Below are positions 3,946 through 50,271 of a stretch of 64,000 nt of DNA, piece after piece. The stretch is from a virus. Positions within the stretch are counted from its first letter, which is position 1. Every line of letters starts with the position of its first letter. The notes beneath the pieces are model-generated. The model did no database searches, was not told the DNA's origin, and saw only the letters and a list, made by a program, of their open reading frames with translations. The stretch covers positions 1 through 64,000 of IMG/VR virus record IMGVR_UViG_3300035670_000033. One strand, written 5' to 3'. Made by a program: the position numbers and the translations under genes.

Positions 3946-4260
3946 ATGGCTATAGATTTTCCCAACTCCCCGTCAAACAACGACCAATTCACCGTAGGTG
4001 CAACCACATGGAAGTACAACGGTTCACAATGGTTGATTATCGTTGGTGAACAAACCATTGCTACGGGATCCATCACTACTGATAAAATTGCTACCAACGC
4101 GATAACAGCGGCAAAGTTGGCGACAGGTGCAACGAACGACTATGTGCTGATGGCTGACTCGTCTGCCGCCGCTGGTGTAAAATGGGCAGACATACCACCC
4201 TCGGGAGGCTTGTCTACTACAACCGAAGGCGCAATTATGACAATGACTATAGGAGCATAA
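3946..4260 (+). CDS. Small tail-fibre-associated protein
   Basis: MAIDFPNSP module, paralogous to 1301..1588; ATG at 3946 preferred over GTG at 3940. Confidence 0.6.
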   Translation: MAIDFPNSPSNNDQFTVGATTWKYNGSQWLIIVGEQTIATGSITTDKIATNAITAAKLATGATNDYVLMADSSAAAGVKWADIPPSGGLSTTTEGAIMTMTIGA

Positions 4261-32171: not shown

Positions 32172-32574
32172 CTAGGAACTCCTGTCGTGCGTCACGCTTC
32201 TCTGTCCGTTGTATGAAGCCTTCTATTTTGTCGGCGTCACGGAATATAAGATCTATACCGTTATATTTTTTTTGTTGCGGGTTGTCGCCCATATGGAATG
32301 GGGAGGATGCACAGCCGTCTATGGCGCGACAGGATGCTTCTATGCCGTAGTCGTGGATGGATGCGGCGATCTTGACTTTGCGGTCGTGATCTAGGACGGC
32401 ACGGGTGGAACCCATTGTCTTAACCCAATAGTCCCATACGATCTGTACCGCATCGTCGGAGATCCCTTTGGCTTTGGCGTTGCGTTGTTTGGTGGAGATC
32501 CGAGGTCGTTCCTGTTTAGGTTTATATGACTTGTTTACGCCACCGTTCGGATTGGGAAACATCTCTTCAACCAT
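32161..32574 (-). CDS. Putative replication initiator (replisome-organiser-like)
   Basis: VWDYW...R..KI...AIDG..SSPFHMG.N...Y..IDLIFRD..KIE motif of phage initiator C-terminal domains. Confidence 0.55.
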   Translation of the reverse strand: MVEEMFPNPNGGVNKSYKPKQERPRISTKQRNAKAKGISDDAVQIVWDYWVKTMGSTRAVLDHDRKVKIAASIHDYGIEASCRAIDGCASSPFHMGDNPQQKKYNGIDLIFRDADKIEGFIQRTEKRDARQEFLDEQ

Positions 32575-32899
32575 CAGACGAACTCTACACCCTTTTACTT
32601 AAAAGGTCAACACACGTTGCCAAAATCAATAACTATCTTTTCCCGGCCGGACCAGTTAGAGGAAGTTATATCAGTGGTATCAACGTTGATGAAAAACAAA
32701 AGGAACAAACACCAGTTAGTTAATAACTTTGGAGGGTTCGGGAACCTTTACCAAATCTTTTTTGGGGCGCGTGCAGCCGAAACAGGATCCGCGATTTTTG
32801 ACAATCGCAGATTAAGATTTGATTATTGATCGCGCGCGAAAGGTTGTATACGCCACCGTGCATCTTAGATGCTTATCTGCGCTTACTATTTTTTTCGTC

Positions 32900-33175
32900 G
32901 CAGTCCCGTGTGTGTGGTTGTAAAAGATAGCAGACCAACAGCCCCGCCGCACGCACGTTTCAAAAATAAACCACTAGTAACGTAATATTGTGTTCGCAAG
33001 TCCCGTCTACCCGCGGGTAACCACAACATGTTGTGGGTGCGGGATCGCGAAGCGGGGCTATCCCTAGAAATGTGCAGGCATGCAGGCGGGGCTATCAGGT
33101 GTTGATAGGGTGATAGTTATCGGCGGGGCTATGAAGACCCCCATCTGAAGGACTCGTCGTGGTAGCGGGGCTGGG
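32900..33175. other. Origin-like non-coding region with palindromes and 8-bp iteron-like repeats
   Basis: CCACAACATGTTGTGG palindrome at 33021-33036. AGYCCCG at 32902, 32940 and 32999 on its left; GCGGGGCT at 33052, 33086, 33123 and 33165 on its right. Confidence 0.5.
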
Positions 33176-33327
33176 CTGTGAACTTAACGTCGGGTTTAGT
33201 TGCACAGCCCGCCCGTTACTTATCTAGCAATCTTAGTTCAGGCTTTTTATAAGTTGGATGGTTACGCATTGAATGTGTGAGGTCGTTGTTTCCGCCACCG
33301 TTCAATTTGGATAACTTCTTTTTAGTT

Positions 33328-33720
33328 TTAGAACTCTTCTTCGGTGCCATCTTGATCCTCTTCTTTGATTGATTGTTCTAACGCCATCAGAATGGTGAAT
33401 GCTTCTGATCTTCGGATGATCGCGTTACTGGTCATGATCGGCCAGTCTTTGATTGGTGTTGCGAAACCTTCAAAGTGTTCTTGCATTCCTTCTTCTGTTC
33501 CACAGTCTGAACAGATCTCTACGGGTTTGTGTGCGTCTTGTCCTCGTGTGAGTCGTGAGATCGCCCCTATGTACTGTCCGTGATGCGCGTTTGATGGGAT
33601 TAGCCCCTCGCAACGCGGGCAGATGCCCATGTCTATTTGTTTTGAGTGGATTCTGTTCCAAGGTTTCATTTTGTTCTCGTTTCTTCTAGTGGTATATGTG
33701 GTTCTTTTTTGTTTTGCCAT
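33328..33720 (-). CDS. Zn-ribbon hypothetical protein
   Basis: CPRC...CSDC. Confidence 0.55.
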   Translation of the reverse strand: MAKQKRTTYTTRRNENKMKPWNRIHSKQIDMGICPRCEGLIPSNAHHGQYIGAISRLTRGQDAHKPVEICSDCGTEEGMQEHFEGFATPIKDWPIMTSNAIIRRSEAFTILMALEQSIKEEDQDGTEEEF

Positions 33721-33833
33721 CCGCAGATTTCTTCAAACCATTTGTCCATCCACGATGTCCGTGATGAATAGTTTACTTCTGTTATTTCCCATCCACAGTA
33801 TTTGCAGGTTCTCATGTTTGTATCCGCCACCGT

Positions 33834-35386
33834 TCAGTTTGGAATAGGGGTTTGTTCGTAAACCATGTATTCACCGTCGTTGTTGACTGCGATTCCTGTC
33901 ACCCAACTGTTGCGATGCTCTGATCCTGTCACACTGTACGGGTCGTCGCCGATCATGATGCGCGTTTTGTATACCGCGTTAGACATCGCCTCGTTCTCGT
34001 TTGGTGCTTCTACATCTGTTGTGACCATTGTTGTGACACGGTACTTTGCCATTACTTGTCCTCCATATATTTTTCTACTGCTTTGAGACCCGTGCTGATG
34101 AGAAGAGAGATCGGTAGGAACGCTGATGCCTGCTTACCGTAGGTGTCACCGTTCTTTTCCACTGACTCTGCGATCAGTCGTTCTATGACATCGCTGTTGA
34201 ATGCCACATAAACATCTTTGTCGCTGATCCCATACACCAACGGTTCTAGTTCGTCTTTCTCTGTGAACACTTCTGATGGTGCTGTAAGGAATGTGACAGT
34301 GGTTCCGTCTTCATGTTGCATTCGCATCATCACATCGTCGCTGTCTTCATCTAAAAATTCAAAATCGCTCATTTGTTTTCTTTCTGATGGCGTATACGCC
34401 ACCGTTCGGTTTGGATAAAGCCACTTCGTTTAGAAGTGGTAGTCCACGATCACGATCCACTGTGAGTCAGGGTCTTTTTCTAGTCGCTTGTTCAACCACT
34501 CAGGGTTGGGTGTGTATTCCACTGTGTCATAGAACATGGTGTCTGCTGAGTACTCTCTGTTGAGAACCTTGAATGCTCTTGTGACTCTGAAGACCGCGAG
34601 ACTTTCTTTCATGCGGTTATCTTTTTCTTCGTCTGTCATTTCTGCATACGGTTTCCCGTCGTAGTCTGCGAAGTCGTATTTACGGTTGGTGAGAATGTCT
34701 TTTAGAGACACATCTCCGTACTCGCTGACAACTTTGTCTATGGTTTCTTGTGTCCATCCGCACGCAACTTCTACGAGTTTCTTGAAACCCTCAGGGTCTT
34801 GTGTGTAGTTCGTTGCGACTTTCATGTCTTGGACACGATCGTCGTCCACGATTGAACACCAATCTGACCACTCTTGTGACTCTGCGAACTGTAGTGCTCT
34901 GCCTTTCGCGTCCACTTCGTCAAATGCTTCTACTGCTAAACGGTGATATGTGTGCATTTTGTTCTCCTTAGAATTGTCGTGAGTTCACAGGATCGCCCTG
35001 TGAGAATGTGAGTGCTGTGTAACCATCTTCGGACGGTGTATGAAACCCGTCTATGTTGTAATACCAACCGTCTAGGTCGCCTATGACGATCTGAGTGCTT
35101 TCGTCAAGACCTTCTAACGCCTTGATTAGTTGCCCGACGGTAAGAATGCCACCCGATGTTTCATTGAAGTCGTATGTTCCTAATCGCATTATGCAACCGC
35201 CTGTTCGGTGTCTATTTTTGTGCCGTACTGTTTTCCTAGTTTTATTGCGTCGCTGTCGTTACCGCCCTCTGCCCACTCTTGGTAGAGTGCGAGACCTGCT
35301 TCGTCAAGTGTTGAGACATCAACGATCACGCTGTGCCAAGTATTCGTAATTGTTCCGTCAAGGGTGTTGATTATCAACTTATCCAT
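33834..35386 (-). CDS. Run of five small hypothetical genes (33834..34052, 34052..34372, 34430..34957, 34968..35189, 35189..35386)
   Basis: Contiguous or coupled leftward ORFs, several with GGAG RBS; no family recognised. Confidence 0.6.
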
Positions 35387-35465
35387 TTTTAGTACTCCAA
35401 TTTCTAGTAGTTGTATTTATTGTAGCGGTTACAAAAATATTTTGCAACCTTCAGCGGTTGGGTTT

Positions 35466-35819
35466 TTACACCCGAACCGCCCTACTAAGGATCTCTGCCT
35501 CAATCTCTTTCACAGGACGAGGACTCCAATAACAATCACGCTCTACCGCAGGGACACCGCCAAAGACGCTGACCGCTTCTAGTTCGCTGTACGAGAAGTA
35601 CCCGTACTCCATCTCAAACCCGTCTACAAGACCCCAAAAGGTGTCTTCGCCGTCAAACTCAATCGCATACCAAGTCCACTGTGAATACGGTGAGAAGAAC
35701 TTGACCATTGCGATCGCTTCCTTTTCAGGGTGCTTCTCGCTGTTGTAGAGAGGAGGGAGAGTGTCCCTGATCTCTTGGGTCAAGAGTAAATGCTTCCGTT
35801 TTGCTCTCTGAGTTTCCAT
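35466..35819 (-). CDS. DUF2958-like protein
   Basis: VKFFSPYSQWTWYAIEFDGEDTFWGLVDGFEMEYGYFSYSEL signature. Confidence 0.75.
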   Translation of the reverse strand: METQRAKRKHLLLTQEIRDTLPPLYNSEKHPEKEAIAMVKFFSPYSQWTWYAIEFDGEDTFWGLVDGFEMEYGYFSYSELEAVSVFGGVPAVERDCYWSPRPVKEIEAEILSRAVRV

Positions 35820-36074
35820 TACTTGATCTCCTTGTAGTTTCCGTTTTTGGTTTCTTTTAGGTTTGTATAAATGATTACTTGCCCCTCGTTATCAACATCC
35901 ATGTCGCAACTAGGGATAAGTTTTTCTAACGCTTTACGCAACTTGTCACCGTCAATAGTTTTCATTATTGCTCCTCGCAATCGTGTCCGTACCAATAATC
36001 ATTCGCTTGATCTTCGTCGCGCATATCAAACACGCGATCGCATTCCGCACATTTCGCTTTCATGATTTTGCTCC

Positions 36075-36416
36075 TTAGTTTTCTAGTGTGACTGTTGTGT
36101 CTTTTACGAATGTTGTCCACGCTGAAGTGAACTCTTCTCCGTGCTTTGCAAACCCAATGATCTCGCCATGTGGGTCACGCTCAACAATGTGAATGAGTTG
36201 TGCCATGCGTGCTGTCGCTTGTGAGAGAAGATCGTATTCTTCTTCCCAAACATTTGCCACATAGTCGCCCCAAATCAAAACGAACTTGTTGAACATTTCG
36301 CTTTCAGGTTCGGTTTCAACAATGAACATCTCTGAGATGTCTGTACGCAACTCAAACAAAACATTTGAGTTCTTGTACTTCTCGTCTTCTACGATCCCTT
36401 GTTTTAGTAATGACAT
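36075..36416 (-). CDS. Hypothetical protein
   Basis: Own promoter (36467-36484) and AAGGAG RBS. Confidence 0.65.
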   Translation of the reverse strand: MSLLKQGIVEDEKYKNSNVLFELRTDISEMFIVETEPESEMFNKFVLIWGDYVANVWEEEYDLLSQATARMAQLIHIVERDPHGEIIGFAKHGEEFTSAWTTFVKDTTVTLEN

Positions 36417-36495
36417 TTTTTGCTCCTTGTTTAGTAGGTTTAGTTTCGGGTTTCCCCTTACCCATAATTATAGGTAAGGGGTGTAACACGGTTGT

Positions 36496-37113
36496 TTAGA
36501 CCGAAACGACGCTCAGTGCCTCTTTGCATTGGACTTCAATCGCTTCAAGTGTTTCTGTGACTTGCTCGTACATTGCGTCGTAGTCTTCGTCGTCTACGCC
36601 ACTCATGCTCGGGTATTCGCCCTCAATGTCTGCAACGATCTCGCCGTTGCGGAATGCGTAACCGCCACAGAACGCCATACCGCCCTCCTCGTAAGAGAGA
36701 ACGAAGTCAAGTGTTGGGAATTGCTTAGACACCCTGCGAATGCCCTCGCCGATCGGAGACCACGCTGACATGAAAGTCATGTTCAGTTCTGTTGGTGTGA
36801 TCGTTCCGAACACGCCATCAAAATCTGACCACTTAGAACCGTAGTTCGCACAATTCCAATCGTACCAATCTGCGTATCCGTACTTTGCTTTATTTGCTTT
36901 CTGCATTTCTTCCATCTGCTTTTGCTTTTCGGTTTCACCGAAAGAACCTTTTGGTGTTGCCGAAAGATCGGATGGTGTTGGTAACAGATTGTCAAGAATG
37001 CTGAACTCGTTATATGACTCACGATCGTCACCTTGAATGATCGCTTCATGGAAACGCTTGATTTCTTTTTCGTCACCTGAAACGGTGAGGTTGTTAGTGC
37101 AATAGTTTGGCAT
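36496..37113 (-). CDS. DUF1281/YubB-like protein
   Basis: MPNYCTNNLTVSG...WYDWNCANYGSKW...FMSAWSP...YEEGGMAFCG signature. Confidence 0.75.
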   Translation of the reverse strand: MPNYCTNNLTVSGDEKEIKRFHEAIIQGDDRESYNEFSILDNLLPTPSDLSATPKGSFGETEKQKQMEEMQKANKAKYGYADWYDWNCANYGSKWSDFDGVFGTITPTELNMTFMSAWSPIGEGIRRVSKQFPTLDFVLSYEEGGMAFCGGYAFRNGEIVADIEGEYPSMSGVDDEDYDAMYEQVTETLEAIEVQCKEALSVVSV

Positions 37114-37512
37114 TACTTCTCCTTGTTTAGTTAGGTTTATTTGCTTGCCCAATCAGTATGCCTCATGGGTGTAACACAGTTATTTTTAGTAGGGATTTTT
37201 TATTACTCTAACATTATATATAAGACAAAAACAAAAAGCAAGTATCGGATCAAAAAACTTGGAGCGATATTTAGAGCGATATTTAGTGCTAACCCGAGAT
37301 CAGATCACACACCCCAAAGCCCCCGATCGCTGTTGAGGTTTATATACGCCACCGTTCGGTTTAGATACAAGCAAACAACTCATGCTAAATAACAATCGTT
37401 GCAAACTAGACAGCCCCGCATCCCAACAGCCCACCCCGACAGCCCCGCCACTCGCGCGGAAGCGCGGGACTAATGCTCGCGAACAGTTGTTCGCTCAACT
37501 ACTATCGGGACT

Positions 37513-37899
37513 ATGACAATCTCCCGAACAGACAGATGGCAATATCGTTTCAATGCGCTCGTGCAATTCACCAACAGGACAGGTTCGTCGCTTGTTCCCG
37601 CAACACAAGTTGAGGTTTATGAGGGCAAGAATGTTGCGCTTGGTGCGTGGGTCGCATACAACCGTCAGCAATATCGTGCAGGAGAACTACCGATCGTGCG
37701 ACAACAAGCGTTAGAGCAACTTGCAGGTTGGCATTGGGAGAAGCAGAAACCTGGCAGACGCTACGACACGAAGCGAGACGCAGAGATCGCACAGCGTTAC
37801 AAGAGTGGCGAGCGTGTCGGACTGATCGCTGTTAGTTTCAATCTTTCACGGCAACGAGTTCATCAAATACTCAAGAAGGTTTCAACACCCAATGTCTGA
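37513..37899 (+). CDS. Helicase-associated (HA) domain plus sigma-4-like HTH protein
   Basis: WQYRFNAL.QF....G...VP......LGAWV...R..Y..G.L...R...LE.L..W (HA domain), then SFNLSRQRVHQI (HTH). Confidence 0.75.
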   Translation: MTISRTDRWQYRFNALVQFTNRTGSSLVPATQVEVYEGKNVALGAWVAYNRQQYRAGELPIVRQQALEQLAGWHWEKQKPGRRYDTKRDAEIAQRYKSGERVGLIAVSFNLSRQRVHQILKKVSTPNV

Positions 37900-38242
37900 T
37901 TTCAGTAACCATGACAAGCGTGATGCTTGGAAAAAGATGAGTGAGTGGTCTCACAGCATTCCTGATGATGAACTTGACAGTCTGTTTGTTGATGAAGATT
38001 GGGAAGACGAGTGGGCTAATCTTCCGCCCGTGTTGCGTGAAACACGCAGACAGGTATTCGGAAAGTTTATATTCGCTCTGTTTGGTTTATCTGTCGGCGT
38101 TGCTTTTGTGTCGTTCTTGTTGTATCAACTTGTTCAAGCGTTGGGTGTCACCGATCTAACTTTTCGTGAGTCTGTGATCGTCACATTGTGTGTTGCGTTC
38201 ATTCGTTACATTGACGCAGGAGTAATGAAACAGATCCGATAA
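37892..38242 (+). CDS. Two-TM membrane protein
   Basis: Two hydrophobic helices; coupled to the HA/HTH gene. Confidence 0.6.
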   Translation: MSDFSNHDKRDAWKKMSEWSHSIPDDELDSLFVDEDWEDEWANLPPVLRETRRQVFGKFIFALFGLSVGVAFVSFLLYQLVQALGVTDLTFRESVIVTLCVAFIRYIDAGVMKQIR

Positions 38243-38371
38243 ACACATCAGGACGCACTCTTGCGAGTGCGCCCTGAGCGGAGAAGCGAAAGGTGAAAGG
38301 AGAAGTCCTTTCGTTCCTCTAGCGGTAAAGAATAACATATGAGTTATATGTCATTCTGAAGCGATCAGGTT

Positions 38372-39868
38372 TTACCCCAATCGCTTTCCGTTTAGTCGTG
38401 TATATGTTTCCTGCCACTTTCTTGGATACCAACGGTTCGGTTTCTTTCCGACCGAAAGTTGCTTCAACAGTGCAAGTCCGTCATTCACATTGTGTGCCAT
38501 AAACACTTTGTGCTTCAAGACTTCTTTTATGCAGTCCATTGCCAAGATGTCGTGGTATCCACCGTATTGACCGCCTGTGCCAAGACCGTGAACCTGACCG
38601 TCTGTAATCCACACGATCGGAGTTGATGAACGCTTGCGTTGTTTGATCGCCCAACGAATTGCTTCGCCGTCTACGCCGTTGCCACCATTCCGTTCAGGAA
38701 GTTTGTCTACCATTTTCCCATCTTTTGCAAGAATGAGAAGGTTCGGTTTCACATTGTTTCGGTCTGCTGAATAAACCGCAACAGTGCAACCTGGACTTGC
38801 TTCCGTGATGTCAAGAATGTTTTTGTTGTTGAGAGACATTGAACCTGAACCGTCAATCAAGACGATACCGCCGTTGCCTTTCTTGTATCGGTCAAACACT
38901 CGCTTCTCGGGGTCTGCAAGTGCGTTACCAATTCTGCGAGGGTTACGACCCATGTTGCTTGCAACACGCTTGCGACCGAGACCGCCATGCGCTTTGCGAG
39001 TGAGTGGGAGATTACCAACAATAAGTTTTCCCCAAGTCGGTACTGCACCGCTACCTCGTTGTGAAGGTTCAGTCGGTTTTACTTTCTTTGGGTCTGCTTT
39101 CGGTTTCTGTGGTTTATCTGTTGCACCGTTGCCGTTCTTGGTTTCTTTTTCTGCGTTGCCTTCTTGCTTCGCTTCGTTCTCTTGCTTCGCTTCGGTTTCG
39201 CCGTCCTCGTTTTCGTTCTCATCAACAGGTGGGTTTGCCAAACGATCAATCCACTCTGCAATTCGCTCTGTGTGTGCGAACCCCATTGGTGCGAGACCTG
39301 TGCGCTCATCTATTTCTGTTGAACCGAGTGTGCCTGTCTTGTGTGCTTTGACGAACTCTTTCTCCACTGCTTTCACAATGTCTCGGAGTGTTGTTCCCCA
39401 TGCACGATTTACTCTGCGTACACCTGTGAGGAAGTCTTTGCCACCACCACAAACCGAGTAACCGACTGCTGTATAAACCGCACTCGCCCAATCGCCTTGC
39501 TCTGCGACACGCATTCCTGTAGTGAGTTCGCTTCCGTCTGCCAACAGATCAACATCAAACCCTGCTTTCTTGATAAGAAAGTTCACACGAACTTCCTCAA
39601 CAACGATCAGTGCATTCTCTGTTGCGATCTTGCGTTCAATCCACTTCGGGAAGTCGTCCGCAGGTGAGAACCGTGCGTGTGCCATTTCATGCGCACGGAT
39701 TACACGATCAACTTGTTCGTCACCAACAGGAACGACCATGTGCTTTGTAACAACATTGGTCATTGGTTTGCCACGAACAGGTGCGCAAGTATCTACTTGC
39801 CATGCGCCCGAGTCTTTATCTTTGCGCCCCAACATTTCGGGGAGTGGTCTGATTTCTACTTTTTGCAT
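38372..39868 (-). CDS. VWA (MIDAS) domain protein, CobT/MoxR-partner type
   Basis: VLIDGSGSM (DxSxS), WITDG, N-terminal HEMAH metallopeptidase-like motif, acidic linker. Confidence 0.8.
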   Translation of the reverse strand: MQKVEIRPLPEMLGRKDKDSGAWQVDTCAPVRGKPMTNVVTKHMVVPVGDEQVDRVIRAHEMAHARFSPADDFPKWIERKIATENALIVVEEVRVNFLIKKAGFDVDLLADGSELTTGMRVAEQGDWASAVYTAVGYSVCGGGKDFLTGVRRVNRAWGTTLRDIVKAVEKEFVKAHKTGTLGSTEIDERTGLAPMGFAHTERIAEWIDRLANPPVDENENEDGETEAKQENEAKQEGNAEKETKNGNGATDKPQKPKADPKKVKPTEPSQRGSGAVPTWGKLIVGNLPLTRKAHGGLGRKRVASNMGRNPRRIGNALADPEKRVFDRYKKGNGGIVLIDGSGSMSLNNKNILDITEASPGCTVAVYSADRNNVKPNLLILAKDGKMVDKLPERNGGNGVDGEAIRWAIKQRKRSSTPIVWITDGQVHGLGTGGQYGGYHDILAMDCIKEVLKHKVFMAHNVNDGLALLKQLSVGKKPNRWYPRKWQETYTRLNGKRLG

Positions 39869-39956
39869 ATTTCCAACTTTCGTTTCTAGGTTTATGTCTC
39901 TTGCTTAGGGAGGCTTGCTTACACCCCCACCTTACGGCAGGGGTGTAACGAGGTTA

Positions 39957-40700
39957 TTAGACCGCAACCTTGTTGATTGCGATTGCGTCTAGGACGCTTT
40001 CTGCCTGCTTGCCGAACACCATTCGTGCGCTGTCTGCGTCACCGAGTGTCTTTCGCAGTTGGTCAAACGCATAGAAGGTGCGGAGTGAGATCCTGCGCTC
40101 GCCTGCGTCTGCCATACGAACCGCATACTCACGGAGATCTGCCGACAACTTCTTGAGTGCGTCAGGGTGAGGTTGGTTGATACGGATTGCGACAGGGAAA
40201 CGATCTTTCAACGCTTCAGGAAGTTCCTCCATTGTTTCAATGTTGGTGGTCATGACAACGCTGAACCCGTCCTTTGGTGTGATCGTCCGATTGTTTTCAG
40301 GACTTTCCCACTTCGCACTTTCAGGTGAGTCAGTGAATGCGAGGAGTGTTGCGAACACATCTGCGCCTGCTTTGTCAATCTCGTCAATTACGAGACGACC
40401 GCCACGCAAACCGTCACCTTTCCACGCTGACACTGCTTTACCGTCTACCCAAGACCAACCGCCTTCGCCGTTCATCTTGTAGTGACCTTCAACTTGCGCA
40501 TTGGACATATCCTCTGTGCAGATAAGTCGGAATGCACCTGCTGTGACATCACCGTAGTTGAGACCTGCGAAAGTCTTTCCTGTTCCTGGGGGACCGAATA
40601 AGATCAAACGGTCTACGCCTGCTTTGAGTGCGTTCTCAACATCTTTCCAACACTGTGGGAGATCGTTGCGCACCTTTCCTTCTAGTACTTGCTGTTCCAT
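39957..40700 (-). CDS. MoxR/CbbQ-type AAA+ ATPase
   Basis: GPPGTGKT (Walker A), VIDEID (Walker B), MTTN (sensor I), ALKDRF (Arg finger). Confidence 0.88.
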   Translation of the reverse strand: MEQQVLEGKVRNDLPQCWKDVENALKAGVDRLILFGPPGTGKTFAGLNYGDVTAGAFRLICTEDMSNAQVEGHYKMNGEGGWSWVDGKAVSAWKGDGLRGGRLVIDEIDKAGADVFATLLAFTDSPESAKWESPENNRTITPKDGFSVVMTTNIETMEELPEALKDRFPVAIRINQPHPDALKKLSADLREYAVRMADAGERRISLRTFYAFDQLRKTLGDADSARMVFGKQAESVLDAIAINKVAV

Positions 40701-40802
40701 TACTTTCCTTCTTTCTCCGAAGTTCGTTCGGACTAGTTTGCTTATTTCTAGGTTTATTTCCTTACACCCCCAACATTACATTGGGGGTGTAACAGGGTTT
40801 AG

Positions 40803-41210
40803 TTACGCTACTTGCGCTTCTGCTGTTGCCTTGCTGTCGGACTTTGCGCCCTTGAGTTCGGTAACACGGATTTGCTCGTATGCCGTGATCGTGGTTACTG
40901 CGTCTGCGACATCTGCTTTGATTACGCCGACTTCCACTGCTGACTTGAACTTCTTACCGTCCACTGCGGACTTGGTAACAGTCTTGAACACCTTGTCGGA
41001 AACGAGATCCTTCAAGATTTCAACGCTGTATGAAGGACGCTCGCCTTTTACGACTGCAACCTTTACACCGTCTACGACTGCGTAGTCCACGCCTTCTTTT
41101 GCGAGTTCCAACTTGAAACTTGCTTCTGCTTGTGCAAGTTCTTGCTGTGCGATCTCTAATGCTTCACGCTTCGCAAGTACTGCCTTTGCTGTTGATGTGG
41201 TTAGTGCCAT
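40803..41210 (-). CDS. Hypothetical helical protein
   Basis: Own motif-C promoter and AAGGAG RBS. Confidence 0.65.
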   Translation of the reverse strand: MALTTSTAKAVLAKREALEIAQQELAQAEASFKLELAKEGVDYAVVDGVKVAVVKGERPSYSVEILKDLVSDKVFKTVTKSAVDGKKFKSAVEVGVIKADVADAVTTITAYEQIRVTELKGAKSDSKATAEAQVA

Positions 41211-41308
41211 TTGATTTTCTCCTTATGTCTAGGTTTATTTGCTTCTTGCCACCACTGTATATCAGGGGTGTAACACGGTTATTCGTACTGACTTTCTATC
41301 TATGATAG

Positions 41309-41339
41309 ATAGTCTAGTACCTGTTTTTGGACTTGTCAA
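41309..41339 (-). promoter_or_regulatory. Canonical sigma-A promoter (TTGACA-N17-TAGACT)
   Basis: Reverse complement reads TTGACAagtccaaaaacaggtacTAGACT. Confidence 0.6.
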
Positions 41340-41342
41340 GTC

Positions 41343-43465
41343 TTATGCGAGAAACCTCGCAATCCCTGCGTCCGTAAGGTCGTCCCCGATCTGACGCTTT
41401 GCGTCTAAGTCATTCAGGTACTCGCTGACGATCTCGCAGATTTCATCACATTGGTTCTGAATCGCTTCGTGACGCTCACGCTCGTCTGCGTCCTCTAAAG
41501 GGTTCATCACGACTGCGTACGATCTGAACGCCTGTGCGATCAACGCTTGCTCAATGCGCTCTAGTTGTGCTTCTGTGAATGTTGTGATTTTCATTTCTTA
41601 CTCCTTGTTTGTTGGTGTACCTGTAATACGCACGGTGACACGGAATGTGTGACAATCTTTTTTTGGACAGAGTCCAAAAGAGGTTGTGAATAACTCGTTG
41701 AGGTTTATATACGCCACCGTTCAGGTTGGGAGATGACAGTTCGGATCGCCGATCTCCGTGCGCCTGCGCCTGAGAGCCCCGCGTTGTTTACATCTTCCCG
41801 CAAGCCCCGCACCGCATCTTCGGGCGCGGGACTAGGCAAAAATAAAGGGGAGGCTTTCGCCCCCCCCCTTGGTTAGTCCCAAGTGATCAACCCGTTTTCT
41901 GCGATGTAGGTTGGGAGTCCCATACTTTTCAGTTCCTCGTATGTGAAAGGAACTTCTTGGTTCTTGTTGATGTGATCAACATATCCCCTGTTTCTGAGGG
42001 CTTCGTCTGTCATTGCTTCTCCTATGTGTCTAGTAGTTGTATCTCTTATACGCAATATTAGAGCAAGGGTGTGACACAGATAAATAGAAAACTTTCACGG
42101 CCGTGTGACATCACGCTTTATGTGACCGTGTGCGTTATATGTATGTAGGCAAAACCGCCTACCAAAGCGTTAGGAGAAGTAGTTGGAAATCAACTATGAA
42201 GCAATAAAAGAAATGACCCGTGCGTTGAAGCAAGAAATTGCAAGAAACGGGATCAACGAAAACAATTCGCAGTGGGTTCACGAAATGCGAGTTGCGATTG
42301 AACTTCGTGAAAGCGGTGTCTACTAGAACCGCCAACAAGACCCCAACTCGGAAACGGGTTGGGGTTCTTTTTTGCCATAGCCCCGCGATCTGATGCGGTT
42401 GCCGCACAGCCCCGACATCCGATGCGCGACGCGGGACTGAGACAAAAGAAAACCCGCAGAAGATGGTTGGTCTCCTGCGGGTTCTTGATTTAGTTGGTTG
42501 TTTCGCGGACTATCTGAAAACGATCGCCTTCTTCGGTAATCATTCCGAGAGTGCTTCCGTTGTCCCATTTGATGTGAACCGTGCCAAGTCCGTCAATGTG
42601 GGTTACGAGACCTTCGTCGCCCCACTTCAACCTCGTGTACGGGTCGCCTGACCGCATAAACATTACTCGCTTACCGACATAACTTTCTTTGTCTGACATT
42701 AGTAGACCCCGAAAGATATTCCGTCTGATGTCATTCCGAACAACGCACCTGCGTCGTTCCCTTCTGTATCCATTGACGGGTAGAGGATTGTTCCGCTAGA
42801 GAGAACGAGAACCATAGGGATTTCTCGTTTGCGCCAACCTTCTTTGTTCATTTCCGCTTTTGTCATTGGACGAATGTCAATGATTGTTGATCCGATCATT
42901 GAGTCGTCTACGGTTTCTGCTTCGTATGTACTGCTCATGTGCTTTCTCCTTTGTTTAGGTTTATATGAAGCGTCTCGCTGTTACACGGACGCTTTTAGTG
43001 GTGACTTGATGTCTGCTAGTTCACGCTCTAACTCTGCACCTTCGCAGTTGTTCATAAGGTCAATCAAATTATCTAACCATGTTGCAACGGACGCAGGAAG
43101 TGGTGTCGTGCTGAGATAGTTGGTGTACTTGTTGAGTACGATGTCAATCTCGGTAACGAGTCCTGCTCCTTCAACATTGTTTGTGATGTCAAGGATTTCT
43201 GTGATTAGGTTGATGTAACTTTGCTTTTCCATTTTTATTTCCTCTCGTTTTGTTTTACAAATCTGACACACTCTTTTTTCGTGGACGCATTGAACGCCTG
43301 ATTGCCTGTTGCGATCTCAATAACAACCCACCAATCGGTTTTGGTTTCGTGAAACCAAACATCATTGAACCCTCTTTGCATAAACCGTTGGTGAAACCTT
43401 TCGCATTCAGGGTGTTCGCACGGTGACTCTTGGATCTCTTTTTCTATCCTGTAAGTGCTGTTCAT
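41343..43465 (-). CDS. Small leftward hypothetical genes (41343..41594, 41873..42013, 42490..42699, 42699..42938, 42981..43232, 43235..43465)
   Basis: Each has an RBS and/or a motif-C promoter; no family recognised. Confidence 0.6.
41838..41870 (-). terminator. Intrinsic terminator
   Basis: GC stem with GAAA loop followed by TTTATTTTT on the minus strand, just after 41873..42013. Confidence 0.75.
42183..42326 (+). CDS. 47-aa rightward miniprotein
   Basis: AGGAG RBS, TTG start, LEINYEAIKEMTRALKQEIARNG...GVY*; followed by a terminator. Confidence 0.55.
   Translation: MEINYEAIKEMTRALKQEIARNGINENNSQWVHEMRVAIELRESGVY
42338..42373 (+). terminator. Intrinsic terminator
   Basis: ACCCCAAC..GAAA..GTTGGGGT stem followed by TCTTTTTT. 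Confidence 0.8.
42444..42483 (-). terminator. Intrinsic terminator
   Basis: AACCCGCAG/CTGCGGGTT stem with a minus-strand U-tract, after 42490..42699. Confidence 0.65.
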
Positions 43466-43654
43466 TTCTATCTCCTTGTCTAGGTCTATATAGATATGTT
43501 ACCCAAGCGGTGTAGCAGGGTTATTCGCCCTGCCACCTGAACCCACGACACTCTCGCTTACTGCGCTTCTTGCGCTTGTCTGCGACACGCTGTGCCTTCA
43601 GGATATTGCGATCTGCAAACGCCTGACGATCTGCCTCACTCCATTGCTTGCTCA

Positions 43655-44137
43655 TTAGAACCTTCTCCTATTCTTTGTCCATTCGTGACAACTATGTTTT
43701 GCTTGCTCATCTACTTGCTCTTGTGACATTCCTGCCTTGATCAACGGACGGTATCCGCATGAGTTGCACGAAACGCCGAGGTACTCGGTGACACCTTGTG
43801 CGATCTGATATGCGTGAACGGTCGTGTTGCCGTGTGTGCGCTCATTCAGATAAACCGTGATGAACACTTCGCAATTCGCACAACCGATGATCTTGACATC
43901 TTTGCCGTCTGTTGGTGCTTGCTTTGGAAAGAAATCAAACTTGAAGTGTTTGCAGGTTTCGCACTTGTCATCAAGTTTGCGAACCTTTGCCACTTCTACT
44001 GCACCTTCGGTTACTGCTTTCCAATGTGCAGGAAGTATCCCTTTCTTTTGTGCTTGCTCAACGAGGTGGTTGCGAACCGCCCATTGTGCGTAAGGCTTGG
44101 CTACTTTTGTTGCCTTTGCCTTTTTGATCTTTGCCAT
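43655..44137 (-). CDS. Cys-rich (Zn-binding) hypothetical protein
   Basis: CETC, CANC and CNSC pairs; ATG 44137 after an AAGGAG RBS. Confidence 0.6.
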   Translation of the reverse strand: MAKIKKAKATKVAKPYAQWAVRNHLVEQAQKKGILPAHWKAVTEGAVEVAKVRKLDDKCETCKHFKFDFFPKQAPTDGKDVKIIGCANCEVFITVYLNERTHGNTTVHAYQIAQGVTEYLGVSCNSCGYRPLIKAGMSQEQVDEQAKHSCHEWTKNRRRF

Positions 44138-44272
44138 TTCTAGTACTCCTTGTTTAGGTTTATCTAACTCGCTAATTACACTATATACGCAGGGTGTCAC
44201 ATAGTGTGTGATCTTTTTAGATCTAAATAATAAATATACTTCTAATATATCAGGGGCATAATATCCCCAACC

Positions 44273-44293
44273 TTGTCCACAGCCTGTGGATAA
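44273..44293. promoter_or_regulatory. Inverted DnaA-box pair TTGTCCACA-gcc-TGTGGATAA
   Basis: Both 9-mers match TTWTNCACA or the actinobacterial TTGTCCACA; preceded by an AT-rich tract at about 44210-44265. Confidence 0.6.
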
Positions 44294-44736
44294 CTAGATC
44301 ACGCAACTCCATTTAGCACTAAGTCAAACGATCAGCAGGCTATATACGCCACCGTTCAAGTTGGGTGATGTCTTGATGTCTTGATGTCGGATCGCCCGAT
44401 CCCATAGCCCCGCGCCATCCGTCGCACGGCGGGGCTAACAAGTCTCGCATCCGTTCGCGGGGCTGTCGCCGTCGGATCTTCGGTTTGTTGGGATAGTGTT
44501 GGGATATGGCTATGCCCTTCAGTCCCAAGCATTCCACTAACTTGCAGATCGGCGAAGTTATTGACGCGCTCGCGCAAACTGAGCCCGATCTATTTGGTGA
44601 AGGTAACGCGACACTAATGCCCGTGCAATACTCTGATCGTCTCGCGTTAGTGATATGCGATCGTTCGCTAGGGGAGTCCATAAACGCTAATAGCCCGCCT
44701 GCCTAACGGCGGACGGGCTACGACACTGCGGACTAT

Positions 44737-46112
44737 TTACTTATTGCGTTGCGACTCTGCCCATAGGTGACGGAATACGAACGCAGGTATCGCGTTGCCG
44801 TCATCCGTGAAGTAGTAACCATTGTCAAGTGTTGAATGATCGGGGATAGTGACGATCCGTCTATTGCTAACGCGACCACGATACCAATATCCAATGATAA
44901 AGATATTGTGATCGCTTGTCGTCTCCCATTGCCAACGCGAAGTGCCGACATATCCCTTATAGGTGAGTTGCGTTGTCATTACTCAACCGCCTGAATCATC
45001 GCGAAGATAGACGGAGACGCCGTAGTGATTCCGTGCGCGTAATCCGTGACTAGGTGCAACATATAATTGTCGCGTTCGTCCTGATCCCATGTCTCTGCCC
45101 AAGTGGTGCGATCGTTGTCGTCCCAATTCATTGTTGAGTTAATGAATATCTCTGCCTTCGTTGGTGGAGTTGAGTTGAGTGTGTATCTCATAATTTGCCC
45201 TTCGTGTAGTAGTTGTGTTGGTAATCGGCTTGCGCCTTGTGCCTAGTTGGAATTGAATCCCACGCCGAACGCGCTAGGCGACTCACCTAAGTGAGTGTGT
45301 TAGATCGCGACCGCTTCGCTGTAACGAAGTGTGCCATCGCCACCCATTGCGATCTCGGTCGCGCGTAACCATAGGTCGCGCACGACTTCATTACCGCGTG
45401 CCCACGAAGTTAAACATCCGAGAACTTCAGTCTCAAACTCCGCGAGTGCTTTATCCGAGTATCGCTTAACCGACTTACGGATAAGAGTTGCGAACGGATA
45501 ATTTACGCGATCGTAAACACCAACCAATTCACTTGTCTGATCGTAGTGTCGCAACGCGATGGACGACATGAGTTGCTTATTATCCGCATCGTGCCAAATT
45601 GTGATACGCACTAAAGTGCCCATTGGTCTGCCATCCACTTCAACCGAGTCACAAGTCGGACTCTTAAGTGTGTAGGTGATCTCGCGATCTTTAACCTTGC
45701 GTGTCGCTTGCGCTAACACTGTATTGTGACTAACAATTAAATTACTCATTATTTATCTCCCGTGTCTAGTTGGTTTATGTTTATTACTTACTATCTATAT
45801 TACGCAACGGGTGTTGCATAGTGTGACATTGCCTGATTAGTCATGATCTGCGAGTTTGACCCAATGCATACCGACCCAACCATCAGGTGTGCGCATTGAG
45901 TTCAGGTGTCCGCCTTCAATGATTGAACGGATAAGACTGAACAATTCCCGCGACAAGTCGTCTCGCGTAATATCCATTGCGTCTACCCATTCATTGTCGT
46001 AACGATTCTGCGTAAGATCGTCAATTACTGATCCAACGATCTCCATGCCGATCGCGCCGATACCGAGATAATTCTCTGCCAATACTTCGCTTAGTGATTC
46101 ATCTAGTGCCAT
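44737..46112 (-). CDS. Small leftward hypothetical genes (44737..44979, 44979..45191, 45300..45749, 45837..46112)
   Basis: ORFs with RBS; two have motif-C promoters. Confidence 0.55.
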
Positions 46113-46696
46113 GTCTATTCCTTGTCTAGTAAGTGTAAGCGTTATTGCTTACTCCCCAATAATACGCAATGGGTGTTGCAGAGTGTGACATTGCCATTCT
46201 GCAATATCGCGTATCCGCTATATCCGTGATCCGATATCTACGATCCGATATACGGTTTATATGCGCTACCGTTCAGGTTGGGGACTTGGATCGGCGATCC
46301 GCCCGCCCGCGTGCGCCCGCGAGCCCCGCGCGCTAAATGGGGGCGCGGGACTGTCAAGTTTTTTGGGGCAAACAGTAGCGTTTGCAGTGTCGCCTTACCC
46401 TCCTGTGACGCATATGAGCCCCGCGTGTTTACACGGGATGCGGGGCTGTGGGCAGGGGAGCCAGAGCCGCGGGTTGGGGAAGCCGCTGAGCGGCTTCGCC
46501 GTCGGTATCTGTATCTGAACTGAGACAATTACGAGAACCTGCCGCGCACTCAAACAATCGTTGAACACTATTCTGAACGCGTTACCGACATTGCAGTGGT
46601 TAGAACTCGCGTGAGAAGTAGCGTCCATGATGTGTGAGTGGCACGGTGCGCTCAACCTAGATAGCCGTGAGACGCACTACAAGCCCCCTAGAAACG

Positions 46697-46726
46697 CAAA
46701 AGCCCCCACCCCGAAGGGTGAGGGCT
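46697..46726 (-). terminator. Intrinsic terminator (UUCG tetraloop)
   Basis: Minus strand AGCCCTCACCC-TTCG-GGGTGGGGGCT-TTTG, after the DUF6011-like gene. Confidence 0.75.
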
Positions 46727-46747
46727 CGCGCCTGCGTTAGGAACTAA

Positions 46748-47236
46748 CTAGATGTTCCTTGCGCACACGGGTCCGATACCCCGTGCTACCGAGTTTGGGT
46801 CGGAAAGTTCCGCACCACACACGCAACAGATACCGAACTCATGCCCTGCCTCCTGCGCCTGTGCGAGGGTCATGCGATCCTCTGCGGAGAGACGGAACAA
46901 CCCGCCACGCTCGTAGGTGAAACGCTCTGCCTTGACAGGTGCGAGAGGGTTGTAACGCATTGCGTACAGGTTGCCTGACTGCCGTGAACGCTTTACACGG
47001 AACACAACGCCGTCCTTGCGGTACATACCGATCTCGGTAACAGGGTTTGCCTGTACGACCCGTGCAGGACGATTCATGTTGCGCTCAACCGCCTGCAACT
47101 GCTTGTCGGATAGACGACCGAAACGATCGTAACCATTGAGGACGCTCGTAAAGAATGCATTGCCAAGTGCGTTGTCACGCAGGAACTGAACTACACGCTC
47201 CTCACGGGTGAGTGGTGGAAGTGTCTGAACTGACAT
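46748..47236 (-). CDS. DUF6011-like Zn-finger protein
   Basis: C-terminal CCVCGAELSDPNSVARGIGPVCA. Confidence 0.75.
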   Translation of the reverse strand: MSVQTLPPLTREERVVQFLRDNALGNAFFTSVLNGYDRFGRLSDKQLQAVERNMNRPARVVQANPVTEIGMYRKDGVVFRVKRSRQSGNLYAMRYNPLAPVKAERFTYERGGLFRLSAEDRMTLAQAQEAGHEFGICCVCGAELSDPNSVARGIGPVCARNI

Positions 47237-47804
47237 AGGTAACTCGCTTTCGTTAGTAGGTTTATTTGCTTACCCTGAATATACGCACAGGGTGTAACAG
47301 AGTGTGCGATACCCGATCGGGGGCGCAGATCGCAGGCACGGCGTTCACCGCAACCTGACAAACCGATTCCGTTGCATGGCTGAGACTTATATCCGCCACC
47401 GTTCAAGTTGGGGACTCAGATCCGCGATCCGCCTCCGCGCTACGCGCCCGCCCGCCCCCACAGCCCCGCGAACTACGCGGTCACGCGGGACTATCAGCAT
47501 CAGCAGAAAGAAGAAGACAAGCCCAGTTGGGAACGTTCCGGCTGACGTCCCGGCGAACGTCATCAAAAACGTTACTTTTTACGCGTTTTGAAAAACATCA
47601 ACTTTTGCTAATTTTTCTGGTTTTTTGAAAGCCTTATACCATAAGGGTTTTACGGGGTGACTTATTGAGGTTTGTAGAAGAAACGAATAAACTGTCAGAA
47701 AGAACAACTTTTTGGGACTCCGGCTGCCGGGCTGGTCTTCAGCCAGTTCCGAAGATGGGCTGATAGCCCCGCGTTATTGTCTGCGCGGAAGTTTGACGCG
47801 GGAC

Positions 47805-50006
47805 TTAGAAGAGAGTTGGCGCATCGTCAAATGCGTTGCGGGTTTCGGTGCAGATTTTGTGTGCGTAACCGAGTGGTGCTGAAGGGTTCCGAGGCGTCCC
47901 TAAGTATCTGCCGTCTTTGTGTTCTAACCAAGCGACAACCTTGACGCAGTATGCCGTGTTCAGGGTGTCTAGCCCTGTGTTGCAGATGGAGCAGGTGACT
48001 TTCATTTATGCGGTTGCTTCTGCCTTTAGTGGTGCGACGATCACGGAAAGTAGATCTTCTACAGGGAACTGTAGGTCACTATGCGACCTGATGTCAAGGA
48101 GTAGATCAACCATTTCCGATGATGATACGAGTTCACGACCCGAGATCTGTTTGATCGCGCTGTCAATGAGTTCGGTGATGGTGCTAATTTTTTGTTCTGT
48201 TTCCAAGAGACTTCTTCTTTCTAGGTGCAATAGTTGGTAGATAGTTTATCGCATAATCGTAAGTATGACGCAGACAAACGATGTGGTCGTTGTACACCGA
48301 GAGTGCTGTAGAGCACCCTTCTAGTGCACAACGACGAACGCCGTTGCCATCTGTTTTGGGTTTGAGAACGGTGTTACTCTCCAAGTTTCGCCCACTCTTC
48401 GTCGCCGATGAGTTCTGATGCTTGCAGTATTGCTTCCTCTATATCAAAGTGCACGCAGTTCAACCAACCCGCTTCACCAACTGTGTCGTCGTCTGCGTAC
48501 AGATCAAACCATGCGTTGTTGTCAAACTCAATGCGTTCTTCGTCTATTGCTTTCTGCAACTGCTCATCTGTTTCAATGCCTACTTCTGCGAGACGGTCGG
48601 AGTATCTGATCACCTGATAGTTCGCATTGTCAATGCGCGCTTCTTTGCTGTCCCAAACATGGAGACGCATTTCGCCATCGCAGTAAACGCTGATGGTGCG
48701 GTCTTTGTAGGTAACCCGTGCCACGAGTTGGTGTGCATTTGCGTCCCAAACATAGAACGCAGGGTCTTTGCAGAACTCTCGCTCATGCGGTGACTGTTCT
48801 CGGGTGATAATTAGGTCTTGCATTACTTCTCCTTGTTTCTAGTAGTTGTACCAAGAGTAATACGAGGGTGTTGTACGGTTACGCCTTTCCTAACAACGCC
48901 AATGCTTCATCTATTTCTATGGTGGTCTTGATGGAGTGATCGCCGTCGTATGCAACGGTGACATAGTTTGCGCCAACGGACGGGTTCTCTGCGAGATCGC
49001 AAATAGACCCGTACGCTTGCGCAACTGCGTCTAAATGGTTGTCTGCTTCATAGACCATTGACCAAGTGACGATGTACTGCATTAGACGGACAGACTTTCC
49101 TGCCATGAAAACATTGGTGAAACACCGAACTCGTCTTTTACGGAACGGGTGCTGACTTCAACATCAACTTTGTATTGCTCTAACGATGCGAGGATATCTG
49201 CAAGTTCCGCCTTGTCGGTTGCGATGCGGTAACGCAACTCGTGCATACGGGTATTTAGGGTCTCAAATGTTTGCTTTTTGTTACGGAGTTTCATTACTTA
49301 TCTGCCTTTCGGTCTGCTTGTGGGTCTCTTATTTCATACTGACGACCTTCTCGTTTTACGAAGATGTCAGGACGATCTTGAACGATCTTGCGGACGGTTG
49401 CTTCTGATATGTCGCCAATTTCCGCAAGTTCTTTTACTGTCACCAAGTCAAAGACATGGTTTTTGCACCAAGACAAGATGTCTTGCTTGCCGTCTTGTGC
49501 CGTGCGCCAACCTTCACTTGGTTGTGCCTGTGCCAAGAGTTCTGCCTTGATGTTGTTTGGTACGAGATCACGGACACGCTTAGGTACTTGCGCAACCCAA
49601 ACAGGTTTCCCATAGGTGTTGATCGCTTCAGTAACTTCGCGTATCGCGTCGTCTAGTTGTGTGTCTACTTCGTTGCTCATAGTGTCTACTATACGCAACG
49701 GGTGTGACAAAGTGTGTGATCCCATTAGAACGGTTCTGCTGTTCGCATGGACTCAGGTACTACAAGTGCGCTTTGTGCTTCGTTCAGTACCGTCATTGTC
49801 TGAGAAATGATGTTGCTGGTTTTTAGTACTGCGCCCTTGAACACCGCTGACTGTTCTTGTGTGCCAACTCGTGATAGTTCTTGTTCAAGAACTTCGTAAA
49901 TGCTGTGTATCGCTTTCTCAATGCGACTCAAACTTGCTGAGTCCGCATCAAAGATCTGTGCGAGTGTTTGTGTTCTTTCCATCTGCTTTTTATATACCCC
50001 TTTCAA
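47805..50006 (-). CDS. Small leftward hypothetical genes (47805..48005, 48006..48230, 48374..48823, 48879..49082, 49082..49294, 49294..49680, 49725..50006)
   Basis: Contiguous ORFs; 49294..49680 has a C-terminal HTH-like segment (TVKELAEIGDISEATVRK). Confidence 0.55.
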
Positions 50007-50271
50007 GGTCTAGGTTTATCTAACAGTATCATTATATACACGGACTTGTCAAATAGCAACCTCGCCACAAACAAATGTTCGCCCACCCCTCCCAAAACTT
50101 TTATATAAGCCACCGTTCGGTTTGGGGTAATTCTTCCCCCTCCTGCTGTTGGGGCAGATCTCGCCCGCCTCCCTAGTCCCGTCGCGGATTTCTTCCGCGG
50201 GGCTGTAAAACTTTGACTTGCAAATCTCAGATGACTCGGATAAACTAAACAGGTACTAGAAATGGGGTGAA

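Follow-up and report, generated by a model that had tools for sequence, protein, structure and literature searches.

The IMG/VR record IMGVR_UViG_3300035670_000033 (138,071 bp, estimated completeness 97%) represents an uncultured 138-kb phage of freshwater actinobacteria. The window analysed here is its first 64 kb (64,000 nucleotides), which contains repeated copies of an asymmetric 26-bp element, motif A. Judging from its sequence and distribution, motif A is a real, conserved, phage-specific and strictly polar regulatory motif that is previously undescribed; a literature search retrieved no paper containing it. The view that its copies form a dedicated, phage-specific, orientation-locked cis-regulatory set is well supported because the motif is conserved in seven genomes, changes in concert between clades and is absent from prokaryotes except for seven singletons. 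We tentatively favour, at a probability of roughly 40%, that motif A is a polar, stoperator-like operator read by a phage-encoded protein.

Motif A in the focal phage and its relatives

In the focal genome, motif A has the consensus yCCAAmyTGAACGGTGGCGkATAyAA and occurs eleven times between 32531 and 50126, always on the minus strand. Its 11-nt core with at most one mismatch matches eleven times in the window, exclusively on the minus strand (32538 to 50118), compared with 0.99 +/- 1.05 matches (maximum 4) in shuffled sequences, and the full 26-mer with up to three mismatches gives five matches versus none in the shuffles. A position weight matrix (PWM) derived from the copies recovers exactly the same eleven sites from the whole 138,071-bp genome (39-51 bits), with no other match above 12 bits on either strand. 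A chance repeat as the origin of the motif is ruled out by the shuffles and the genome-wide PWM scan. The initial annotation had described a mostly intergenic element of a single orientation confined to 32.5-50.1 kb, and the genome-wide count bears this out: orientation is not random (11/11 minus), no site lies elsewhere, and ten of the eleven copies are located outside open reading frames (ORFs), although coding sequence makes up 74% of the block (binomial P = 1.3e-5). The same annotation counted ten full copies and a partial one; the site in question (32851, GCACGG) is real but not partial, and eleven real copies are counted here because it still scores ~36-39 bits.

The copies are listed below from the head of the block, together with the accompanying inverted repeat B and promoter-like motif C where these characterize a site.

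50101-50126, minus strand: copy 1 (50108), head of block, in the divergent gap between minus-strand ORF 49725-50006 and plus-strand ORF 50272-50871; GGCT variant
47387-47412, minus strand: copy 2, long gap with minus-strand order B, A, C
46257-46282, minus strand: copy 3 (46264), long gap; GGTAGC variant
44340-44365, minus strand: copy 4 (44347), long gap
41705-41730, minus strand: copy 5 (41712), perfect consensus; order terminator-like hairpin, B, A, leader with a DnaA-box-like word, C
37340-37365, minus strand: copy 6 (37347), long gap, divergent from the HA+HTH gene described below
34390-34415, minus strand: copy 7 (34397), short gap between cistrons, followed by a purine-rich ribosome-binding site (RBS) and an ATG at 34372
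33818-33843, minus strand: copy 8 (33825), tight gap between cistrons; contains the TGA stop codon of ORF 33834-34052
33286-33311, minus strand: copy 9 (33293), start of a ~750-nt non-coding stretch rich in B half-sites
32844-32869, minus strand: copy 10 (32851), in the same ~750-nt stretch as copy 9; GCACGG variant
32531-32556, minus strand: copy 11 (32538), within the initiator-like ORF (around codons 5-13); a predicted leaderless promoter lies ~13 nt upstream

The sites thus comprise six long-gap copies (50108 to 37347), two tight-gap copies (34397 and 33825), two in the non-coding stretch (33293 and 32851) and one in-gene copy (32538). The two core variants, the overlap of one copy with a stop codon and the presence of another in the 5' end of the initiator gene had all been reported in the initial annotation and were found as described.

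An exact-pattern scan of IMG/VR identified many contigs with several co-oriented copies of motif A. The relatives G001-G004 contain 9-10 copies each, on one strand of a syntenic block, whereas the more distant clades II and IIb were found by searching with two proteins of the block (a 498-aa protein and the HA+HTH protein). G005 (133 kb) and G006 encode 13 and 10 copies of TGACGGTGGCGGAAAGC, respectively, again on one strand of one 16-20 kb block. With the focal phage, the six IMG/VR relatives represent seven genomes in three clades (9-13 copies per relative), in which all 73 copies (73/73) lie on the sense strand of a single 17-20 kb block of small early genes, with none elsewhere in these 133-145 kb genomes. 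No close relative was found among deposited phages.

The clade I consensus from 50 instances is ttyyCCAAmyTGAACGGTGGCGkATAyAAm, with no information beyond ~26 positions, and the clade I matrix has no match in contigs L153-L158 (a scan that did not include L170). The 9-nt core ACGGTGGCG is fixed in all clades, while the 3' flank changes from kATAyAA in clade I to GGAAAGC in clades II and IIb; all copies of a genome have exchanged the 3' flank together, along with part of the 5' flank. This concerted change around a fixed core points to a single trans-acting reader. In three clade II copies, the core has turned into GGAGG and is located at RBS distance. Among 185,579 prokaryote genomes, the exact 18-base motif pattern occurs as seven singletons in unrelated phyla, versus an estimated ~17 expected by chance, which rules out a host promoter class or a prophage remnant as far as exact matches go.

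The motif block (31.7-50.1 kb, minus strand) comprises ~38 mostly small ORFs, including an AAA ATPase and its 498-aa partner, DUF2958, DUF4314 and DUF6011 proteins, small cysteine-rich proteins and an initiator-like protein, and its gene content is typical of an early or host-takeover module. A tail sheath, tape measure, baseplate, terminase, portal, HK97-type protease and capsid mark the phage as a myovirus, which also encodes a primase, ribonucleotide reductase, DNA methyltransferase and SNF2 helicase, and its two WhiB genes indicate an actinobacterial host. Searches for Phage_integrase and Resolvase domains gave no matches, although their positive controls responded (partition genes were not searched), and an integron-like cassette site was ruled out as no integrase was found.

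Promoters, leaders and other elements around motif A

The six long-gap sites share a fixed order of elements on the minus strand, consisting of an occasional intrinsic-terminator-like hairpin, B, a G-rich stretch with paired GATC, A, a leader of 65-170 nt, C, and finally the RBS and start codon. B and C are distributed as follows.

37441-50204, minus strand: inverted repeat B, eight full copies (37441, 41803, 42408, 44406, 46322, 46417, 47462, 50175)
41615-49718, minus strand: motif C, seven copies (starts 49718, 47306, 46187, 45825, 44210, 42073, 41651)

The arms of B, AGTCCCGCG and CGCGGGGCT, are 9 nt long and separated by 12-13 nt. Each of the six long-gap copies of A has a B 40-76 nt upstream, and no full copy of B was found in the genome outside 37.4-50.2 kb. 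Each C consists of an ACACCC box followed by GCG and a TAnnnT-like hexamer, with TAnnnT directly after GCG in 5/7 copies. At 49718, the TAnnnT ends 7 nt before an RBS-less ATG, a leaderless geometry that is also seen at the head of the block of L175 (clade IIb), where the ACACCC box is contained within the 17-nt spacer of a canonical -35/-10 promoter ending 6 nt before the ATG. The C elements are therefore read here as probable sigmaA-type promoters, although some C-like boxes are located downstream of canonical promoters, so that C may in part represent a leader element. ORF 40803-41210 is preceded by a canonical -35/-10 promoter (41311-41339; spacer of 17 nt) that is conserved in relatives; in the relatives' contigs L184, L185, L187, L193 and L196, this promoter is followed by a 17-nt palindrome at ~+1 to +20 and one or two ACACCCC boxes, which indicates that C-like boxes can sit inside leaders. 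Downstream of copy 1, a sigma70-like promoter match was identified at 50059-50031.

Both B and C are retained in clades II and IIb. The sequence between B, A and C is not conserved, which argues for selection on motif A itself rather than on a copied block. A role of motif A as a class I activator site for promoter C was rejected, as the distance from A to C varies from 39 to 185 nt without clean helical phasing.

Several further features were observed in these gaps. The leader after the 41712 copy contains a DnaA-box-like word with one mismatch and a perfect 8-bp palindrome (41660-41700), and orthologous leaders in G002-G004, L185, L187 and L193 contain a perfect E. coli-type DnaA box, in both orientations. 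Paired GATC between B and A is found at 41745-41760, 44385-44400, 46290-46305, 47420-47435 and 50155-50160; the DNA methyltransferase gene of the phage is located at 70470-71852. Each long gap also contains private short direct repeats, including a 9-mer in two to three copies after the 46264 copy (46195-46250), a 13-mer in two copies after the 37347 copy (37265-37295) and an 8-mer in three copies before the 44347 copy (44366-44390), perhaps serving as sites for regulators of individual genes. In clade II, a small hairpin with a tetraloop of the GNRA or UUCG type closes the leaders, and the 3' arm of this hairpin runs into the RBS (L153 1459-1505, 2158-2204 and 9197-9243; L174 ~4150-4200); the stem is kept and the loop is variable.

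The position of motif A relative to genes differs between the site classes. In the focal genome, 6/11 copies lie 92-185 nt from the next start codon, as called automatically for the next ORF of at least 35 codons and checked by eye for two copies. At copy 8, the ATG of a small cysteine-rich ORF follows 9 nt past the core. The 3' half of copy 7 and the bases next to it form a perfect 14-nt palindrome (34393-34406), in which pairing is kept in orthologous copies via G-T changes. About half of the copies across clades are within reach of a ribosome at a start codon, including the copy at codons 5-13 of the initiator-like gene, and the three clade II copies with a perfect GGAGG at RBS distance would likewise suit an element that acts in RNA, for which polarity along the sense strand is inherent. 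Motif A might accordingly be bound in linear form by an RNA-binding protein of the phage, or be a ribosome-related element comparable to the start-associated sequences of Cluster K phages, and control the translation or stability of early mRNAs. This is improbable, since the best-conserved copies are 100-190 nt from the next start codon and upstream of the C promoters, and would be absent from the main mRNAs. Moreover, pairing between the clade I core and the anti-Shine-Dalgarno sequence is poor, and a structured RNA or known RNA family was rejected, as the copies share no common fold (z-scores -1.95 to +1.98) and have no Rfam match over A. On the minus strand, 36829-36915 matches the Rfam family RsmY weakly and below threshold (24 bits versus a gathering score of 57, E = 0.024), probably by chance.

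The in-gene copy 11 and its surroundings involve two annotated features.

32161-32574, minus strand: initiator-like gene (phrog_16167, 8e-17, profile positions 172-274 of 315)
32574-32610, minus strand: predicted sigmaA-type promoter of the initiator-like gene (TTGACC-like hexamer, 17-nt spacer, TAGAGT, 7 nt, ATG)

The match of the initiator-like protein to its replication-initiation family is confined to the C-terminal half of the family profile. In five clade I genomes (the focal phage and G001-G004), a TAnnnT hexamer is located exactly 7 nt before the ATG while the 7-nt spacer varies in sequence, from which a leaderless mRNA is predicted. Despite a 9-nt indel, which is itself in frame, the reading frame of the N-terminal extension of the ORF is kept, and the clades show synonymous differences there. 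Together, the reading frame and the leaderless promoter suggest that the 32538 copy is both transcribed and translated, and by its position it is located where an operator would lie. In the non-coding minus-strand sequence 32890-33280, directly upstream of the gene and between two A copies, the B half-site is repeated directly at least four times and occurs inverted several times, and an AT-rich patch is also present; this stretch looks like an origin or protein-loading region. This repetition of B half-sites in non-coding DNA suggests that B is a protein-binding DNA site rather than an RNA hairpin only.

Three copies of motif A are located in or beside the initiator-like gene, near these half-site repeats, and one leader contains DnaA-box-like words. 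Furthermore, homology blocks between relatives often end within ~100 nt of A (several breakpoints, to which no statistics were applied), which fits cassette shuffling at a repeated regulatory region. Motif A could on these grounds be a replication iteron-like site, or a homology patch for cassette recombination comparable to the T4-type elements discussed below, with a secondary role in transcription. We regard both as very improbable: most copies are spread, unclustered, over 17 kb at the heads of cassettes, the initiator-like protein corresponds to the half of its family that does not bind DNA, and a homology patch is at odds with the lack of conservation between B, A and C. Contigs starting at A (L187) or at a C-like box (L195) were attributed to assembly breaks at repeats and not to transcript ends.

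A candidate reader and the function of motif A

The best candidate for the reader of motif A, as far as gene position, conservation and predicted structure indicate, is a small basic protein encoded against the direction of the block, hereafter the HA+HTH protein.

37513-37899, plus strand: HA+HTH protein, 128 aa, pI 10.5, with a Pfam HA ('helicase-associated') domain and a resolvase/transposase-type helix-turn-helix (HTH)

Its gene opens the sole transcription unit within the block that runs on the opposite strand, and is divergent from a B-A pair. It is the only block protein that is both strongly basic and conserved in all three clades (77-91%, 60% and 54% identity). In the structural model, with a predicted local distance difference test score (pLDDT) of 68 (84-90 for the HTH part), a disordered basic linker connects two modules of three helices each. 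All three clades have an identical recognition helix. The HTH helix before it has one form in clade I and another in clades II/IIb, mirroring the change in the 3' flank of the motif; because this involves only two phylogenetic groups, the parallel is a lead and not a test. A profile of the protein compared with the Protein Data Bank (PDB) did not match the solved Cluster A repressor (best E = 0.24, to a transposase subdomain), a comparison made for this candidate only and not for the other ORFs one by one. A Foldseek search with the model returned nothing at E <= 0.001; the sub-significant neighbours from the sequence and fold comparisons are resolvase HTHs, the bipartite domains of mariner and Sleeping Beauty, and POU domains. 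An HTH_17 protein (ORF 49294-49725) was rejected as an essential reader because it is missing from the syntenic block of G002, which keeps 10 copies of the motif.

In the favoured model, motif A would be a DNA site for a sequence-specific phage protein and not the promoter of the genes downstream. The asymmetric core and 3' flank (~17-19 bp) would be bound by a monomer with two DNA-reading modules, for which the HA+HTH protein (37513-37899), transcribed against the block, is the best candidate. Once this protein has accumulated, bound sites might act as polar barriers or operators to the host RNA polymerase, stopping read-through from the upstream cassette, transcription between cistrons in the tight gaps, and transcription at ~+13 of the leaderless initiator-like gene. 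The net effect would be that early cassettes are insulated and later shut down. We infer the binding of a protein to motif A, the identity of that protein and the block to elongation alike.

Several observations speak for this model. No clade shows a consistent sigmaA -10 element after the motif, the cassettes are already served by separate sigmaA-like promoters (C and canonical ones), and the position of the motif varies relative to promoters and start codons. Its absence from prokaryote genomes other than as singletons (exact matches) also makes it unlike a host promoter class. Other observations weigh against the model. The copies at the head of the block (50108 and that of L175 in clade IIb) are upstream of the first promoter, beside divergent genes, with nothing obvious to block, and the long-gap copies, which follow a terminator-like hairpin and B, may seldom be reached by a polymerase. 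In addition, the phage looks lytic and lacks an integrase or resolvase, so there is no prophage to silence. The link between the HA+HTH protein and motif A rests on two phylogenetic groups only, its model is of modest quality (pLDDT 68) and has no significant structural neighbour, and the protein could equally read B.

Motif A may instead be a new phage-specific promoter class with transcription starting at or just after the motif, a serious although unlikely alternative. The host polymerase could then be redirected by an unrecognised phage factor, either a divergent sigma factor or a WhiB and adaptor pair like T4 AsiA/MotA or PafBC 'sigma adaptation', or the motif could serve an unrecognised phage or virion polymerase; A and C would be tandem promoters with different timing. 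Consistent with a promoter, the length and asymmetry of the motif resemble those of single-subunit polymerase promoters, the head-of-block copy adjoins divergent genes, and the interval from the upstream terminator-like hairpin to A shows no evident sigmaA promoter. Downstream of several tight-gap copies, an RBS and ATG come at 15-28 nt, a normal leader length, and the clade I cysteine-rich ORF, which starts 7-9 nt past the core without an RBS, could be leaderless. The genome also provides possible factors, namely the two WhiB genes and three head-operon proteins of 1048, 959 and 954 aa (minus strand of the focal genome G000, 84941-94572; L131, 941-10572). No other large protein is unassigned, and none of these three has a sequence match in Pfam, PHROG or the PDB.

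The initial annotation had called for a search for an RNA polymerase or sigma factor gene, and none was detected. Pfam and/or PHROG scans of 37/39 ORFs of at least 300 aa (all except 83440-84678 and 123947-125251) revealed no RNA polymerase, and six-frame and ORF scans for Sigma70_r2 and the sigma-70 family returned nothing beyond isolated region-4-like HTHs. The six-frame search for T7-type RNA polymerase (PF00940) was silent, which is weak evidence as its controls were silent too. Furthermore, the three clades share no -10-like element: clades II and IIb have lost the AT-rich end and have a GC-rich flank, and in clade I the invariant A residues have no T at the spacing required by sigmaA (a T occurs at the -7 position in 52% of 50 copies). 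By eye and logo, SigmaA, ECF (extracytoplasmic function), sigma-28, sigma-54 and SigB/F-type geometries were all rejected, since spacing and invariant positions fit none of them. Across clades, RBS-less start codons follow the core at 6, 7, 8, 8, 8, 8, 9, 10, 11, 13 and 15 nt, a variable spacing that is incompatible with one fixed transcription start serving leaderless genes. Clade II start codons are located at varying distances 2-9 nt past the motif, and together with the three GGAGG cores this implies that the motif itself is transcribed there, which, like the 32538 copy within a translated ORF downstream of its promoter, counts against a promoter.

The proposal in the initial annotation of an operator/roadblock set or a phage-polymerase promoter set of an undescribed type is thus well supported as to a dedicated regulatory set and not supported as to the polymerase promoter, given that no polymerase or sigma gene was found, the 'TATA' end is lost in sister clades and one copy is inside a translated ORF. 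Its analogy to stoperators holds in anatomy, where the fit is better, and fails as family membership, since motif A occupies one block only in a phage without an integrase, and its candidate reader is unlike the Cluster A repressors.

Relation to known regulatory systems

Stoperators of Cluster A mycobacteriophages are 13-bp asymmetric, orientation-dependent sites in promoters and short gaps, which are recognized by repressors that bind as two-domain monomers (PMC9283540). For L5 gp71 and the TipsytheTRex repressor, 20-36 such stoperators or operators are spread through the genome (PMC9283540, PMC6550527). Motif A is likewise asymmetric and multi-copy, located in short gaps and near promoters, oriented with transcription and shifted in consensus between relatives, and its candidate reader is proposed to be a monomer of two linker-joined modules. 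In contrast, it is 26 bp long instead of 13 bp, is present in 9-13 copies in one early block, belongs to a phage that lacks an integrase and looks lytic, and has a candidate reader without sequence or fold similarity to the Cluster A repressors. The shared word GGTGGC is probably a chance resemblance. Based on copy distribution, life style and repressor family, motif A is not considered a member of the Cluster A stoperator family.

The start-associated sequences (SAS) of Cluster K and EF phages are 13-bp asymmetric elements that occur in 10-19 copies, all oriented alike, in the non-structural genome half; some of them are preceded by an inverted repeat, the extended SAS (ESAS), now thought to hold a sigmaA-like promoter (PMC3203893, PMC7302621, PMC11373665). 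With these elements motif A shares its occurrence in an actinophage, its asymmetry, single orientation and location in the non-structural region, its absence from host genomes, and an inverted repeat with a variable spacer before a subset of copies (B before 6/6 long-gap copies); as with SAS, some copies overlap a stop codon or are located at RBS distance. However, the 13-bp SAS lie 3-9 bp from nearly every associated start codon, whereas half of the A copies are 100-190 nt away and one is within an ORF, and the clade I core is a poor RBS, with only the tight-gap copies at 6-15 nt from a start. Moreover, the ESAS promoter is contained in the repeat immediately upstream of the SAS, while the order here is B, A and promoter-like C. 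By start-codon distance and element order, motif A is thus not assigned to the SAS/ESAS family either.

Promoters of single-subunit phage RNA polymerases (T7, T3 and SP6) are asymmetric elements of ~23 bp. Motif A resembles them in length, asymmetry and, in clade I only, an AT-rich end, but differs in that no polymerase gene was found, the AT-rich end is lost in sister clades and the downstream distance is variable. In hybrid promoters such as the T4 MotA/AsiA middle promoters and the PafBC 'sigma adaptation' promoters of mycobacteria, the place of the -35 element is taken by an upstream box, which an adaptor seated on sigma region 4 recognizes, and a canonical TAnnnT is retained at a fixed distance; WhiB proteins are known to bind the same sigma region. 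The PafBC promoters contain a GTC box at -28 to -23 and a canonical TAnnnT 10 nt after the box (PMC8635444). The presence of WhiB genes in the phage and the resemblance of the clade II word TGACGG to the tGTCgg box are reminiscent of such systems, whereas the conserved GTC triplet is absent, clades II and IIb have no TAnnnT and clade I has only a weak one, so that the features that define these promoters are lacking.

The motif A core shares 8/12 bases with the ops word of the RfaH system. Unlike in RfaH/ops regulation, no match to the NusG NGN domain was found at E <= 1, and the long-gap copies are located upstream of promoter-like C. Finally, the T4-type promoter early stem-loop (PeSL) elements, which Arbiol et al. 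reportedly described in 2010, combine a stem-loop with a host-type early promoter. PeSL elements are also repeated regulatory cassettes among small early genes with a mosaic content between relatives; here, however, there are three separate conserved elements, and A is not host-promoter-like.

A more comprehensive scheme, which we consider rather unlikely, is an undescribed three-part early-region code composed of palindrome B, polar A and promoter C. In this code, a small bipartite HA+HTH monomer, with no kinship to the Cluster A repressors, would read A and block the host RNA polymerase in one direction, an independent invention of the stoperator principle that a lytic phage would use for temporal gating and not for lysogeny; or A would be the first known case of a promoter class for an unrecognised actinophage factor.

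Almost nothing is known about how phages of the abundant and largely uncultured actinobacteria of freshwater regulate their genes, and motif A, which is easily scored, offers a way into the early programme of a whole group of myoviruses with genomes of 130-145 kb. If it is a polar operator, the stoperator principle would extend beyond Cluster A prophages and the fold of their repressors, and a function would be assigned to the widespread 'helicase-associated' HA domain. If it is a promoter, it would reveal an unknown way of redirecting actinobacterial RNA polymerase. In either case, the sites mark cassette boundaries and would aid the annotation of metagenomic phage contigs.

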